A DNA stretch of 64,000 nucleotides from Acutalibacteraceae bacterium (GCA_045591525.1 JAZNTA010000191.1:31461-95460); one strand, 5' to 3'. Counted from the stretch's first letter, positions 49,234 to 52,955 are shown. The notes: generated by a model not told the origin, from the letters alone. A program made the numbers and translations.

Positions 49234-49264
49234 TGCAAGAAAATCTTGTCAAATTGCAAGAAAT
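49234..49264 (-). promoter_or_regulatory. double-repeat box g
   Basis: TGCAAGAAAAtcttgtcaaatTGCAAGAAAT, 139 nt upstream of the pseudogene ATG. Confidence 0.6.
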
Positions 49265-49303: not shown

Positions 49304-50590
49304 CTATCTGTTTTTCAATATCATTATAGTTGTGATGAATTCTCTATTGTGTTCATCATATTCCCAAGTATAATCGCCATTATATTTTTTCAATGTGTTT
49401 TTTAGACTTTTCAATCCAAAGCCATGAAATCTTTTATTGTTTTTAGTTGTTTTTAAAATTAAATTATCAGAAATCGGTTTTTCATCACAACTATTTCTTA
49501 CAACAACTATATCATATGTGTTCCTATGATCTGTAAAGAAATCAACATATTTATCTTTTGATTTTTCTGCCGCTTCGACTGCATTATCTAATACATTACC
49601 CAAAATTGCAACTAAATCATACATCTCTACACCCAGAAGATTTGAGAGCCTAACATCATAAGTAAAATTTATTCCTTTCAATTCACACTCTGTAATGTAT
49701 TTATTTATGATAACATCAAGATAATGATTGCCACTATGAGCTGTTTGGCTATATTTTCTCAACTCTACTTGCATTTTGGTAAGATATTTATCAATTTCTT
49801 CATTAGAACTTAACTCTTTAATTGCAGCAAGATGTTTTTGTGTATCGTGAGCATATATAGCTAAATTCTCATTCTGTTGTTCAAGTATCTGATAATATGT
49901 TTTATCATTTTCCAATTTAGTTAGTTCACTTTCCAACCGCAATAATTTTGTTTCTTTGTCAACACTGCGTCTATAAGAAACAAAAATCAAAATAGTTGAC
50001 AACAAAAGCGAAAAACTTATTATTGAAATTATATACTTATAAGTTTGCGACAAATGAAAATCACTATTTATACTCCACAAAAACAACAATACAACAATTA
50101 CAACAATAGGATAAAAATAATATGTTTTTGGTATCGGAGTTGAGGTATCTTTTGTTTTAATAAATTTAATTAACAAAAGGCAACAAAAGAAATAAATAGT
50201 CTTACTTATAACAACATTTAACAAATATTGCGACACATCATGTGAGTTTGCAATTACATCTCTGTTTAACACTATGGATATAATAAAAATTGTTATGTAT
50301 TCAGTACAAGTTGACATGATATCAAGAATAATTGATAAAAAAATGGATTGCTTTAAATTAATATTAAAACAACAAAAAGCAAAAACCATGTTTATTATAA
50401 GGAAACAAACAAGATTCAACCATATGGTTGAAAAGAAAAGATATACTGTTGCACCTAATCCAAATGTTATTAACCCTATAGCACAGCAAAAAAGATGGCT
50501 CTTTTTTCTATTGCTAACTTGGCTGAAAAAATAATATGAAATAAACAGTTCAAGTAAATATACTGCTGATACAGACAAAATTTCTGACAT
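49304..50590 (-). CDS. AgrC-like (HPK10-type) sensor histidine kinase
   Basis: 6-7 N-terminal TM helices, H-box 'YAHDTQKHL', GHKL ATPase 'LGNVLDNAVEA...HGFGLKS'. Confidence 0.8.
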   Translation of the reverse strand: MSEILSVSAVYLLELFISYYFFSQVSNRKKSHLFCCAIGLITFGLGATVYLFFSTIWLNLVCFLIINMVFAFCCFNINLKQSIFLSIILDIMSTCTEYITIFIISIVLNRDVIANSHDVSQYLLNVVISKTIYFFCCLLLIKFIKTKDTSTPIPKTYYFYPIVVIVVLLFLWSINSDFHLSQTYKYIISIISFSLLLSTILIFVSYRRSVDKETKLLRLESELTKLENDKTYYQILEQQNENLAIYAHDTQKHLAAIKELSSNEEIDKYLTKMQVELRKYSQTAHSGNHYLDVIINKYITECELKGINFTYDVRLSNLLGVEMYDLVAILGNVLDNAVEAAEKSKDKYVDFFTDHRNTYDIVVVRNSCDEKPISDNLILKTTKNNKRFHGFGLKSLKNTLKKYNGDYTWEYDEHNREFITTIMILKNR

Positions 50591-50591
50591 G

Positions 50592-51290
50592 TCATTTACC
50601 TCTTAAATACATAAACCAATATTTATGGAAATCTGCTTGTTTTCTCGTTGCAACGGATATTCTGATATCTTCGTTAATAAAAACTTCTGTATAAGAGTAC
50701 TTTGTAACATAATGCAGATTAATTAGAAAACTTTTATGAACTTGATAAAAAAATGTATTAGGTAATTTTTCTTTCCAATATTCCAAAGTCTGAGTTATTT
50801 TATATTCACCGTTTTTTGTGACAACAATAATCTCTCTGTTTTCTCGCTTAATATAATAGATATCGTCTACCAATACCTTTAAATGTGTTCCTCCTTGAGC
50901 AAGATAAACATCAACATATGTTTCGTCTAAATACTCTAATGCTTTATCTAATCCAGAATATAATCTATTAACATCAAAAGGTTTCTCAAAGAACCTAAAA
51001 ACTCGCAAATCCATAGCGTCATCCTGAAATTCGGGATAATTGGTTACGAAAAAAACCACTACTTTACTGTTTCTTCGTTTTAATTCTTTTGCAACAGTTA
51101 AACCATCAATATTACCCAATTGGATATCTAAGAAAGCCAAGTCAAAAACATCTTTACCTGTGATAATCTCTTGGGCAGATGTTGAAACGACATATTCTGG
51201 TTTAATAAAGTGATTTTTCATATATTCTTCAACATGCAATCTCAATTCATCCAAGTAATTGGATTGATCATCACATAAAAGTATTTTCAC
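50592..51290 (-). CDS. LytTR-family response regulator (AgrA-like)
   Basis: Receiver 'ILLCDDQ...FLDIQL'; C-terminal LytTR 'FYQVHKSFLINLHYV'; AGAGGAGG RBS plus GTG 51290. Confidence 0.85.
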   Translation of the reverse strand: MKILLCDDQSNYLDELRLHVEEYMKNHFIKPEYVVSTSAQEIITGKDVFDLAFLDIQLGNIDGLTVAKELKRRNSKVVVFFVTNYPEFQDDAMDLRVFRFFEKPFDVNRLYSGLDKALEYLDETYVDVYLAQGGTHLKVLVDDIYYIKRENREIIVVTKNGEYKITQTLEYWKEKLPNTFFYQVHKSFLINLHYVTKYSYTEVFINEDIRISVATRKQADFHKYWFMYLRGK

Positions 51291-51310
51291 ACAAAGACCT
51301 CCTCTTATAA

Positions 51311-51335
51311 ACAAAAACTACCACGATTGTGGTAG
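51311..51335 (-). terminator. hairpin between the XRE gene and the response regulator (terminator or attenuator)
   Basis: CTACCACaatcGTGGTAG followed by TTTTTGTT on the minus strand. Confidence 0.5.
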
Positions 51336-51362
51336 CAAGTTTAGCACAAATATTATTTTTAG

Positions 51363-51680
51363 TCAAATACTGCCAATATACAGTTCAATAAAAGATTTAA
51401 GAAATTTTTGATTGTCTGGTGGACACTTTGACAACAAACAAATTATATCATTTTCTGTTTTCGTATCAATTCTACCAATAAGATAGTAATCAGGTGTACC
51501 GCCTAAAACTTCACACAAATCTAATATAGTAGATGTTGTAGGTAGACATTTCCCTCTTTCCATGCTTGATATATGGTTTTTGGAAAGAGAAAGTTTTTCA
51601 GCCAATTCTTCTTGTGTTATTGATTTTTCCTTGCGTTTTTGCATTATCCGTATACCAATAAGTCTATTATCAAATTGCAT
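51363..51680 (-). CDS. XRE-family HTH regulator
   Basis: 'ITQEELAEKLSLSKNHISSMERGK' HTH_3 pattern. Confidence 0.8.
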   Translation of the reverse strand: MQFDNRLIGIRIMQKRKEKSITQEELAEKLSLSKNHISSMERGKCLPTTSTILDLCEVLGGTPDYYLIGRIDTKTENDIICLLSKCPPDNQKFLKSFIELYIGSI

Positions 51681-51782
51681 AAAATCACCATTTTTTATTT
51701 ATGGTATCATTTAAAACTAAATGCATAAACAAATTTTGATAGAACTATTCTGTAATATAATTATTTTTACGCATAAAATTTG

Positions 51783-51812
51783 TTTTTTTGTGTAATATTG
51801 TGATTTCTTGCA
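51783..51812 (+). promoter_or_regulatory. partial double-repeat box in + orientation upstream of the agrD-like/agrB genes
   Basis: ATTTCTTGCA (51803-51812) matches the box repeat; the partner about 20 nt upstream (TTTTTTGTG) is degenerate. Confidence 0.35.
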
Positions 51813-51896
51813 AAAAAACACAAATTTATAGCAATTTAAAAAATTCATTGAAGGAGCTTTATTTTTTATGATATCATTCTTTCGGAGGTGTTATAA

Positions 51897-52049
51897 ATGA
51901 AAAATTATAAAATCAAATTTAACCAAATTATGAAAAACAGTATTGAAACTGCATTAAAACTTAATGCAAACAACACATCATCAACTGTTCTTCATCAACC
52001 CAAGGCCCCAGCAAAATTGAAAAAATTCAGTAAAATCAGTTCTAAATGA
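51897..52049 (+). CDS. agrD: AgrD-like autoinducing-peptide precursor (50 aa)
   Basis: GGAGGTG RBS; amphipathic N-terminus; 'SSTVL-HQPKAPAKL' resembles the clostridial AgrD ring plus QPxxPxxL tail; stop overlaps the agrB ATG (ATGA). Confidence 0.6.
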   Translation: MKNYKIKFNQIMKNSIETALKLNANNTSSTVLHQPKAPAKLKKFSKISSK

Positions 52050-52642
52050 TTGGTCGATTATCTGAAAAGATAGTTTCGTACCTAATCGCTTTTGAAACTA
52101 TACCCGAAGCAGAGCGTGAATTATATCAATACGGAGTATTTTTATTAATTTCTCAAATACTATATTTCACCGTAACACTGATATTTGGATTTGCATTGGG
52201 TATAGTCTTTGAAAGCATTGTTTTTTTTATTGCATTTCAAAGTATTCGTCAGATCGCAGGTGGTTATCATGCCACTACTGAAACAAGGTGTGAAATTCTA
52301 TCTGCTGGAGCTATTTTATTAAGTCTTATTTTTATCAAACTAGTTAACGAAAATGCGCTGTTCACATATACATTAGCTATAGCTTTAGTATGTGCTAGTG
52401 TAATTTTTTTATTGGCACCATTAGATACTGTTCAAAGACTGTTGTCAGATGATGAGTATATTGCATTTCGTAAAAAAACACGCGTTATTCTCATAGTTAT
52501 CATAACAGTAATAGCAGTTTCTTATATTATGAAAATAAATATTGTTTTTACTTCCTGTTGCACAAGTCTAATCCTAGAGGGATTTTTACTTTTGGTAGGG
52601 AAAATAAATAGAGAAAGTATAAATTCAAACACCTGTGAATAA
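52046..52642 (+). CDS. agrB: AgrB-family peptide-processing membrane protease
   Basis: 'RQIAGGYHATTETRCEILS' (conserved R..GG.H......C), multiple TM helices, 198 aa. Confidence 0.85.
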   Translation: MIGRLSEKIVSYLIAFETIPEAERELYQYGVFLLISQILYFTVTLIFGFALGIVFESIVFFIAFQSIRQIAGGYHATTETRCEILSAGAILLSLIFIKLVNENALFTYTLAIALVCASVIFLLAPLDTVQRLLSDDEYIAFRKKTRVILIVIITVIAVSYIMKINIVFTSCCTSLILEGFLLLVGKINRESINSNTCE

Positions 52643-52799
52643 ATTTGGGGTGCTTTATACTCTTGATATTTCATATTTCAAAATTTAAATTTGATATTTT
52701 GAAATAAAGATATAATTTTTTTACCTACAATAGATAACAGATTTTATTTCACTTATTAGTCAGCAAAACAATATTTGAACCATATATAGTATGTATAAA

Positions 52800-52835
52800 A
52801 AGAAGCTAGATGAATTTATTCATCTAGCTTCTTTT
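52800..52835 (+). terminator. intrinsic terminator
   Basis: AAGAAGCTAGATGA-atttat-TCATCTAGCTTCTT then a T-rich tail. Confidence 0.7.
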
Positions 52836-52955
52836 CCTTTGTCATTAAATGATTTAAAGAAATTTTTGATTAACATATGGGAAGAATACATAGCTAAATA
52901 CCCATAATCTCCGGTTTTTGAGACTGAAATTCAAAAATAAAGGAGATTATATAAA

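Follow-up and report, generated by a model that had tools for sequence, protein, structure and literature searches.

A cysteine-free AgrD-family precursor, predicted to be cyclized through serine, in a complete agr-type locus of an uncultured gut bacterium

The agr-type locus described here lies in a window of 64,000 nucleotides (the whole stretch of DNA that was analysed; JAZNTA010000191.1:31461-95460) from an Acutalibacteraceae bacterium (GCA_045591525.1) whose genome comprises 2.84 Mb in 212 contigs with a GC content of 37.5%. An open reading frame (ORF) on the plus strand (51897-52049) encodes a 50-amino acid peptide, MKNYKIKFNQIMKNSIETALKLNANNTSSTVLHQPKAPAKLKKFSKISSK, that contains no cysteine, and its stop codon overlaps the start codon of agrB as ATGA (52046-52049), an overlap that is conserved in relatives. 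The ORF and its translation agree with an earlier, sequence-only reading of this DNA, which had proposed that the product is an AgrD-family precursor of a serine-lactone autoinducing peptide (AIP). We consider it very probable from the sequence comparisons below that the ORF represents agrD within a complete agr-type quorum-sensing system, carried by an uncultured, Clostridia-like gut bacterium, that Ser29 is the likeliest nucleophile, and that a 10-codon ORF overlapping the agrD start is no conserved gene.

The 50-amino acid product matched the NCBIfam model TIGR04223 ('AgrD family cyclic lactone autoinducer peptide') with 27.9 bits (E = 1.8e-6) against a cut-off of 19, and the match spanned residues 19-43 of the peptide and model positions 14-38. 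This search had been suggested in the sequence-only reading and, together with the adjoining, catalytically intact AgrB, it bears out the proposed family membership. Eight relatives, cysteine-type and serine-type alike, also scored above the TIGR04223 cut-off, whereas a Pfam scan gave no match for the ORF and no sequence match to AgrB or AgrD was found among PDB chains. Genome-wide scans for TIGR04223 and agrB detected no second agrD or agrB above cut-off. The only ORF downstream of agrB, which was considered as another agrD and rejected, encodes 38 amino acids (52791-52907) and is devoid of AgrD features.

The peptide can be divided into a leader (approximately residues 1-27), a core (approximately residues 28-33), and a follower (Q34-K50). 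The follower, QPKAPAKLKKFSKISSK (51996-52046, plus strand), is the putative AgrB-recognition peptide and was delimited by invariant alignment columns and the subfamily motif; Q34, P35, K36, A37, P38, L41, K42, K43, F44, S45, and K46 were invariant in AgrD alignment A1. The resemblance to a clostridial follower tail, noted in the earlier reading, was confirmed by the agreement of HQPKAP with AgrD1 of Clostridioides difficile, ...ANSTCPWIIHQPK (PMC8534292). The amphipathic N-terminus described there was less distinct; the hydrophobic moment of residues 7-24 was 0.41, and 15% of shuffled sequences had a value as high. The agrD gene has its own Shine-Dalgarno (SD) sequence, GGAGGTG (51884-51890, plus strand), which is located within the 10-codon ORF, 6 nt before the ATG, in the modal range of spacing for this genome. 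It is identical in four close lineages, and the relative with 75% identity discussed below has AGGAGGTG.

The agrB gene (52046-52642, plus strand) encodes a membrane cysteine peptidase/cyclase that matched PF04647 over model positions 1-180 (E = 1.5e-34). Its catalytic residues, His75 (52268-52270) and Cys82 (52289-52291), are seven residues apart and correspond to the catalytic pair of Staphylococcus aureus AgrB, His77 and Cys84. G72, G73, H75, C82, and P125 were invariant in all 51 AgrB homologues aligned. A terminator-like hairpin (52798-52835, plus strand), whose 17-bp stem precedes a T-rich tail, ends the agrDB unit. The remaining genes of the system are divergent, on the minus strand: an XRE-family helix-turn-helix regulator (51363-51680; PF01381, E = 2.5e-13), whose synteny is retained in L040-L043 and L047; an AgrA-like response regulator with receiver and LytTR domains (50592-51314; PF04397, E = 4e-19; PF00072, E = 6e-13); and an AgrC-like membrane histidine kinase with an HATPase_c_5 domain (49304-50590; PF14501, E = 6e-22), which also gave a weak full-length match to the staphylococcal AgrC model NF046015. 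The kinase and the regulator were far below cut-off on the staphylococcal equivalog models and are therefore regarded as homologues, not orthologues, of AgrC and AgrA.

The order agrD-agrB was conserved among the more similar loci. Of 200 further genomes from this family that were searched with the AgrB protein, 33 had a match. In 16 of the more similar loci (L007, L011-L019, L021-L023, L026, L029, and L030) an AgrD-like ORF is located directly upstream of agrB and ends at or overlaps its start, and the more distant AgrBs have agrD downstream, which is the textbook order. The arrangement of kinase, regulator, XRE protein, agrD, and agrB is whole in the closest metagenome relatives, whose AgrB proteins are 98%, 89%, and 75% identical to that of the window. 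A different agrD-like ORF downstream of agrB, which the earlier reading had named as evidence that would count against its proposal, was not seen in any orthologue; the upstream, overlapping arrangement held for the 16 loci and for all close relatives. From the same genus, one further genome was searched (G074, 98% complete); it had no AgrB match, so the locus is accessory, consistent with the adjacent serine recombinase gene. Just downstream of agrB in L013 and L014, both of them serine-type loci, is a conserved ORF for a 64-amino acid, zinc-ribbon-like protein of the form CxxC...CxxC (MDNSDSYRIAMKVTETVIFKK...).

The distribution of serine and cysteine in the subfamily was determined with a profile built from five AgrDs, which had 181 matches at E ≤ 0.001 among 1.84 billion representative proteins; a word-index search with AgrD yielded just three close relatives, and the census comes from the exhaustive profile search. 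It covers the best 150 of the 181 matches, and the counts that follow hold among the matches listed. About 143 are short peptides with the subfamily frame A-N-S-T-[T/S]-[C/S]-x-x-x-[Y/H/F]-Q-P-K-A-P-x-x-L-K-K-F. Positions were numbered backwards from the first proline, so that Ser29 of the window peptide is at -6 and Ser28 at -7. Cysteine was at -6 in approximately 99 of the cysteine-bearing members and at -7 in a handful, and residue -7 was mostly threonine or serine. The ring window was free of cysteine in 39 members, and position -6 was serine in 37 of these and threonine in two; position -7 was serine in 19, threonine in 17, alanine in two, and asparagine in one. By this comparison, position -6 is the predicted nucleophile column of the subfamily. 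Serine at -6 appears to have been selected rather than left by decay, because random single-base changes of cysteine codons would be expected to give serine in about 25% of cases, compared to the 37 of 39 observed. When the ring was masked, the nearest neighbour was a cysteine-type peptide for 21 of the 39 serine-type members, and this interspersion suggests repeated switching between the two residues, the sequences being short. Six loci in the family sample (L013, L014, L017, L025, L034, and L037) likewise encode cysteine-free peptides, as does the 75%-identity relative (NNTSSSVIYQPKAP). The serine nucleophile proposed in the earlier reading is implied by a peptide that has no cysteine. The AgrD profile also matched three long proteins, P0137 (436 amino acids), P0125 (540 amino acids), and P0234 (1423 amino acids). 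The C-terminal 38 residues of P0137 are AgrD-like, so that this protein is a fusion or the product of a gene call extended too far; in P0125 and P0234, six to nine repeated matches are confined to the leader part.

Divergence between alleles was evaluated by comparing the locus (49304-52642) with the closest orthologous locus, L040 (749-4085). The flanking gene for a 151-amino acid protein and the serine recombinase gene encode products with 92% and 97% identity, respectively. Identity was 57.5% for the kinase (37-50% in the first two alignment blocks out of eleven), 65% for the XRE protein, 68.5% for the LytTR regulator, 74% for AgrD, and 75% for AgrB, where it dropped from 95% to 52% along the length of the protein. 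The cores of the two alleles are STVLH in the window and SSVIY in L040. The divergence of the agr genes resembles that of specificity groups, as might be expected of a pherotype-like, hypervariable island.

A LytTR-type box in the orientation of agrD was detected at 51784-51812 (plus strand). Its proximal repeat, TTTCTTGCA (51804-51812), is exact, and the distal repeat (51784-51792) has three mismatches. Pairs of this repeat, 21 nt apart, precede seven other operons in the window, as strong minus-strand boxes at 49263, 47605, 43911, 36474, 35045, 27691, and 25192. In all seven, the distance from the proximal repeat to the start of a -10-like hexamer is exactly 37 nt, and TG is present at offset 34-35 in most. 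Control of agrD by the same regulator is made less certain by the fact that its box has one good repeat and that the nearest extended -10-like hexamer is at offset 59 instead of 37, a departure of +22 nt (about two helical turns) from the rigid spacing of the seven promoters. The 75%-identity relative has a TGATAATAT element near the canonical offset. Autoinduction of agrD through the LytTR regulator is plausible, and it may be weaker or differently spaced than activation at the other boxes.

Other repeats were observed around the agrD box. In L018, which belongs to another genus of the same family, TTTCTTGCAA is located about 70 nt upstream of agrD, and the box may be common to the agr clade. 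Spanning the agrD box, at 51776-51827, is a 20-nt inverted repeat, AAATTTGTTTTTTTGTGTAA / TTGCAAAAAAACACAAATTT, with 85% complementarity; it could be the site of a second regulator, such as the XRE protein. Near the XRE start (51699-51711) and at the start of the 10-codon ORF (51866-51878) are copies of a 21-nt direct repeat, TTTTTTATTTATGGTATCATT / TTTATTTTTTATGATATCATT. The copy at 51866-51878 contains a perfect 10-bp palindrome, ATGATATCAT, which is imperfect in the copy at 51699-51711; the latter, which the 75%-identity relative retains, may represent the extended -10 element of the XRE promoter. The palindrome was considered as a repeated operator and rejected: 13-mer matches in the window numbered 14, compared to 10.9 ± 3.6 in shuffled sequences, and the copy near agrD is not palindromic in L044 or L047.

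Immediately upstream of agrD is the 10-codon ORF (51868-51900, plus strand; ATGATATCATTCTTTCGGAGGTGTTATAAATGA, MISFFRRCYK), which the sequence-only reading had described as driven by a strong ribosome-binding site and translationally coupled to agrD. The elements of that description are present: AAGGAG (51851-51856) is located 11 nt before the ATG, and the TGA of the ORF (51898-51900) overlaps the ATG of agrD (51897-51899). A promoter consensus scan detected a promoter-like site in the same place (51848-51877, plus strand), with TTGAAG at 51848-51853, an 18-nt spacer, TG at 51869-51870, and TATCAT at 51872-51877, and this site overlaps both the AAGGAG and the ATG of the 10-codon ORF. The simplest reading is that the apparent ribosome-binding site overlaps a -35-like hexamer and that the TG of an extended -10 element (TTGAAG-N18-TGnTAnnAT) comes from the ATG. 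If so, transcription would start about 7 nt after the hexamer, and the 10-codon ORF would not be on the mRNA. Sequences from the four close lineages were compared over this region. The peptide, SD-like, and -10-like sequences are MISFFRRCYK, AAGGAG, and TATCAT in the lineage of the window; MIPFFRRCYK, AAGGAG, and TACCAT in L046; MLIFFWRCYK, AAGGAA, and TAATAT in L044; and MITFFWRCYK, AAGAAA, and TAACAT in L047. Fixed in all four were TTGAAG, the TG, positions 1, 2, 5, and 6 of the hexamer, and the agrD SD with its spacer; the SD-like bases and positions 3 and 4 of the hexamer varied. The differences in the 10-codon ORF comprise five non-synonymous and no synonymous substitutions, and codon 3 is S, P, T, or I.

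Two observations sit poorly with a promoter at this site. With TATCAT as the -10 element, the mRNA would begin 12-13 nt before the agrD ATG, at the SD, which is an unusually short leader. A short ATG ORF that ends at the overlapping TGA precedes 50 (8%) of the 608 ATGA-start genes of this genome that have no long upstream frame, and none of those 50 short ORFs is preceded, at 5-17 nt, by an SD-like motif, so the arrangement is uncommon and not a common accident. These numbers, the genuine ATGA overlap, and the retention of the ATG and an open frame in all four close lineages favour translation of the 10-codon ORF from AAGGAG, across the agrD SD, to the UGA, followed by re-initiation that couples or tunes agrD in this lineage only. 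The 11-nt spacing, found in 6.7% of AGGAG genes, is compatible with such translation and lies at the outer limit of the range of the genome, where the mode is 8 nt. Coupling is nonetheless improbable. The 75%-identity orthologue (four contigs, L040-L043; sequence ...CTAACAAGGAGGTGTTTTTATG) lacks the 10-codon ORF, and no equivalent was found in the 16 other agrD-agrB loci; an ORF of 12 codons in L014 is unrelated and has no SD, and L013, a close relative of L014, does not have it. Every substitution among near-identical strains changes the peptide, the SD-like motif erodes from AAGGAG through AAGGAA to AAGAAA, and agrD has a near-optimal SD of its own. The bases that are kept (TTGAAG, TG, and TA..AT) are promoter bases, and this also accounts for the retention of the ATG. 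Attenuation of the ermC kind, in which translation of a leader unmasks the agrD SD, was considered and rejected, as the predicted fold of the leader RNA (51840-51915) was not significant (z = -0.48), and this fold also argues against coupling. The upstream ORF proposed as a functional coupled element was thus not conserved and was judged no conserved coding element. A second alternative concerns agrD itself, which may be a decaying or non-cyclising allele whose product is unmade or is released as a linear peptide, with no signalling by a cyclic AIP. Decay of agrD usually shows first as loss of the canonical cysteine, and the distal repeat of the box before agrD is degenerate. Decay is the least probable of the alternatives, however, given the serine that fills the cysteine column in nearly all of the cysteine-less clusters listed (37 of 39), the intact follower motif, SD, AgrB catalytic residues, and overlapping gene layout, the 92-98% conservation of the peptide in three other strains with the serine type retained in the 75%-identity relative, and the serine rings established experimentally elsewhere (PMC5322536; PMC12312760).

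The position of the ring is the remaining point on which the evidence divides. The sequence-only reading had arrived at an S-S-T-V-L ring by alignment to [CLWFT]-HQP of C. perfringens; its serine nucleophile agrees with our results, but its register is probably off by one, as Ser29 and not Ser28 occupies the nucleophile column. The nucleophile is most probably Ser29 (core Ser29-Thr30-Val31-Leu32-His33, 51981-51995, plus strand), which would form an S-T-V-L-H ring if the ring has the usual five residues. Among individual rings, STVLH is our leading candidate, at somewhat less than an even chance; SSTVL is possible, STVL is doubtful, and SSTVLH is more doubtful still. If the histidine or aromatic residue is the last of the ring, Ser29 gives the usual five-residue ring, and staphylococcal AIPs, too, have a conserved hydrophobic residue in the last ring position. 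Several observations pull the other way. Serine is present at both -6 and -7 and threonine at -8 and -5, so that the nucleophile is not fixable from the sequence alone, and the characterised clostridial AIPs are drawn with the cut before the H or Y of [HY][QE]P, as in [CPWII] followed by HQPK and in [CLWFT]; a cut at this place would favour S-S-T-V-L or a four-residue ring from Ser29. The tentative alternative is, accordingly, a nucleophile at Ser28, with AgrB cutting between Leu32 and His33 to give a five-residue lactone, S-S-T-V-L (51978-51992, plus strand), that is the positional analogue of the C. difficile and C. perfringens rings. ANNT-SSTVL-HQPK matches ANST-CPWII-HQPK of C. difficile AgrD1 residue by residue (PMC8534292; PMC12312760, Table 1), [CLWFT]-HQPEEP of C. 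perfringens has the same positional pattern, and the C. thermocellum ring was reported as S25-F29, then Y30 (PMC5322536). Within the subfamily, among the matches listed, a minority has cysteine at -7 (P0162, P0181, P0235, and P0263), and Y, H, or F is at -2 in 95 of 98 cysteine-type members, which fits a follower better than a variable ring. Against Ser28, serine was present at -7 in just 19 of the 39 cysteine-less members listed (threonine in 17, alanine or asparagine in three), compared to 37 at -6, and the closest cysteine-bearing homologues (L007, L011, L012, P0123, and P0124) all have cysteine at -6 and align without gaps onto Ser29. TIGR04223 did not separate the two registers: the -6 and -7 types both aligned gap-free with similar scores, and the cysteine column of the model is not discernible from the alignment coordinates. 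A text search of the literature for YQPK or HQPK matched the C. difficile peptide alone.

In C. difficile, C. perfringens, and C. thermocellum the cut is drawn ahead of this part of the peptide; made ahead of the conserved [Y/H/F]-Q-P here, it would leave a four-residue ring with Ser29 as the nucleophile, where Ser28 would give five residues. It is conceivable, though unlikely, that the whole subfamily, in which the predicted nucleophile is one residue nearer the follower, makes a non-canonical product, either a four-residue (13-membered) ring cut before the aromatic residue or a tail-less serine lactone that undergoes an O-to-N shift to a head-to-tail cyclic peptide. If that were true, repeated switching between cysteine and serine, with serine in about one-quarter of the clusters among the matches listed, would be an extra axis of pherotype diversification in gut Clostridia. 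The displaced nucleophile also means that neither C. perfringens nor C. difficile can simply serve as a template for ring size and cleavage site, and the uncertainty in register is relevant to anyone synthesising the signal.

The genes of the locus are consistent with the following route, in which Ser29 is taken as the preferred nucleophile. The co-translated membrane peptidase AgrB would bind the 50-amino acid precursor through the follower QPKAPAKLKKF, and its Cys82, aided by His75, would remove the follower and retain the peptide as a thioester. Attack by the serine hydroxyl on the thioester would form a lactone ring, where cysteine would give a thiolactone, and the leader would be lost during export. 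The cyclic peptide would be sensed by the divergently encoded, AgrC-like kinase, and the LytTR regulator would then activate the TTTCTTGCA double-repeat promoters, including the weaker copy at agrD (autoinduction). The assignments complete an agr system that probably controls the neighbouring box-driven operons, which encode RHS toxins, proteases, and a NACHT protein, in this uncultured gut bacterium. They also fix the annotation of agrD, a small gene that is often missed by gene callers, and caution that a ribosome-binding site with an overlapping small ORF can be a disguised promoter. About one-quarter of the sequence clusters in this gut and rumen AgrD subfamily are serine-type and interspersed with cysteine-type clusters (among the matches listed), and serine cyclisation was termed rare in previous work (PMC8251862). 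The new points, the proportion of serine types and the shifted register, are modest.

Serine-lactone AIPs are already documented, in Clostridia as well (PMC5322536; PMC12312760, Table 1), and the novelty that the earlier reading gave to them was overstated. Since such peptides are known and the family model itself is named for a lactone, the serine-type AgrD of the window belongs to a known kind. The closest likeness is to C. difficile AgrD1 (ANST[CPWII], then HQPK), which has the same A-N-x-T-(ring)-H-Q-P-K frame and type of follower (PMC8534292; PMC12312760, Table 1) and whose locus is written agrD1B1 in the Primer. The cysteine of C. difficile AgrD1 is seven residues before the proline, whereas the window peptide has no cysteine and the nucleophile column of its subfamily is six residues before the proline; the C. 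difficile agr1 locus is without an adjacent kinase or regulator, and the window has the full divergent set. The ring of C. perfringens is likewise formed from cysteine, [CLWFT] (PMC12312760, Table 1). Clo1313_2818 of Clostridium (Acetivibrio) thermocellum, a cellulosome-bearing clostridial host, is AgrD-type and serine-cyclised, and its lactone pentapeptide was confirmed by targeted liquid chromatography-tandem mass spectrometry against a synthetic standard (PMC5322536). It shares with the window peptide an aromatic residue and a conserved proline after the ring, but its ring is assigned as S25-F29 followed by Y30 and the register in the window is uncertain; Clo1313_2818 is also an orphan without adjacent agrB, agrC, or agrA, whereas all four functions are adjacent in the window.

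Among other serine macrocycles, RIPT[STGFF] of Staphylococcus pseudintermedius/intermedius and GBAP of Enterococcus faecalis, QN[SPNIFGQWM], have serine in place of the ring cysteine, with the lactone made by an AgrB/FsrB-type enzyme (PMC12312760, Table 1). Their genes form one operon, agrBDCA or fsrBDCA, unlike the window, where agrD precedes and overlaps agrB and the kinase and regulator genes are divergent; their follower motifs are unrelated in sequence to that of the window, and the GBAP ring has nine residues. The clostridial agr2 peptide of C. difficile, NSA[SSWVA], has a proposed ring that starts with Ser-Ser and is listed as a serine macrocycle (PMC12312760, Table 1); its gene order, agrB2D2C2A2, is unlike the agrD-agrB of the window. 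The clostridial AgrBD products cyclo-CWFWSY of Ruminiclostridium cellulolyticum and [CVLVTL] of C. acetobutylicum are tail-less; clostridial AIPs detected to date had no exocyclic tail, with rings that can comprise five or six residues, and the fate of a tail-less serine lactone was raised as an open question (PMC8251862). Those cyclic AIPs are derived from cysteine and rearrange by an S-to-N acyl shift, whereas the AgrD of the window implies serine.

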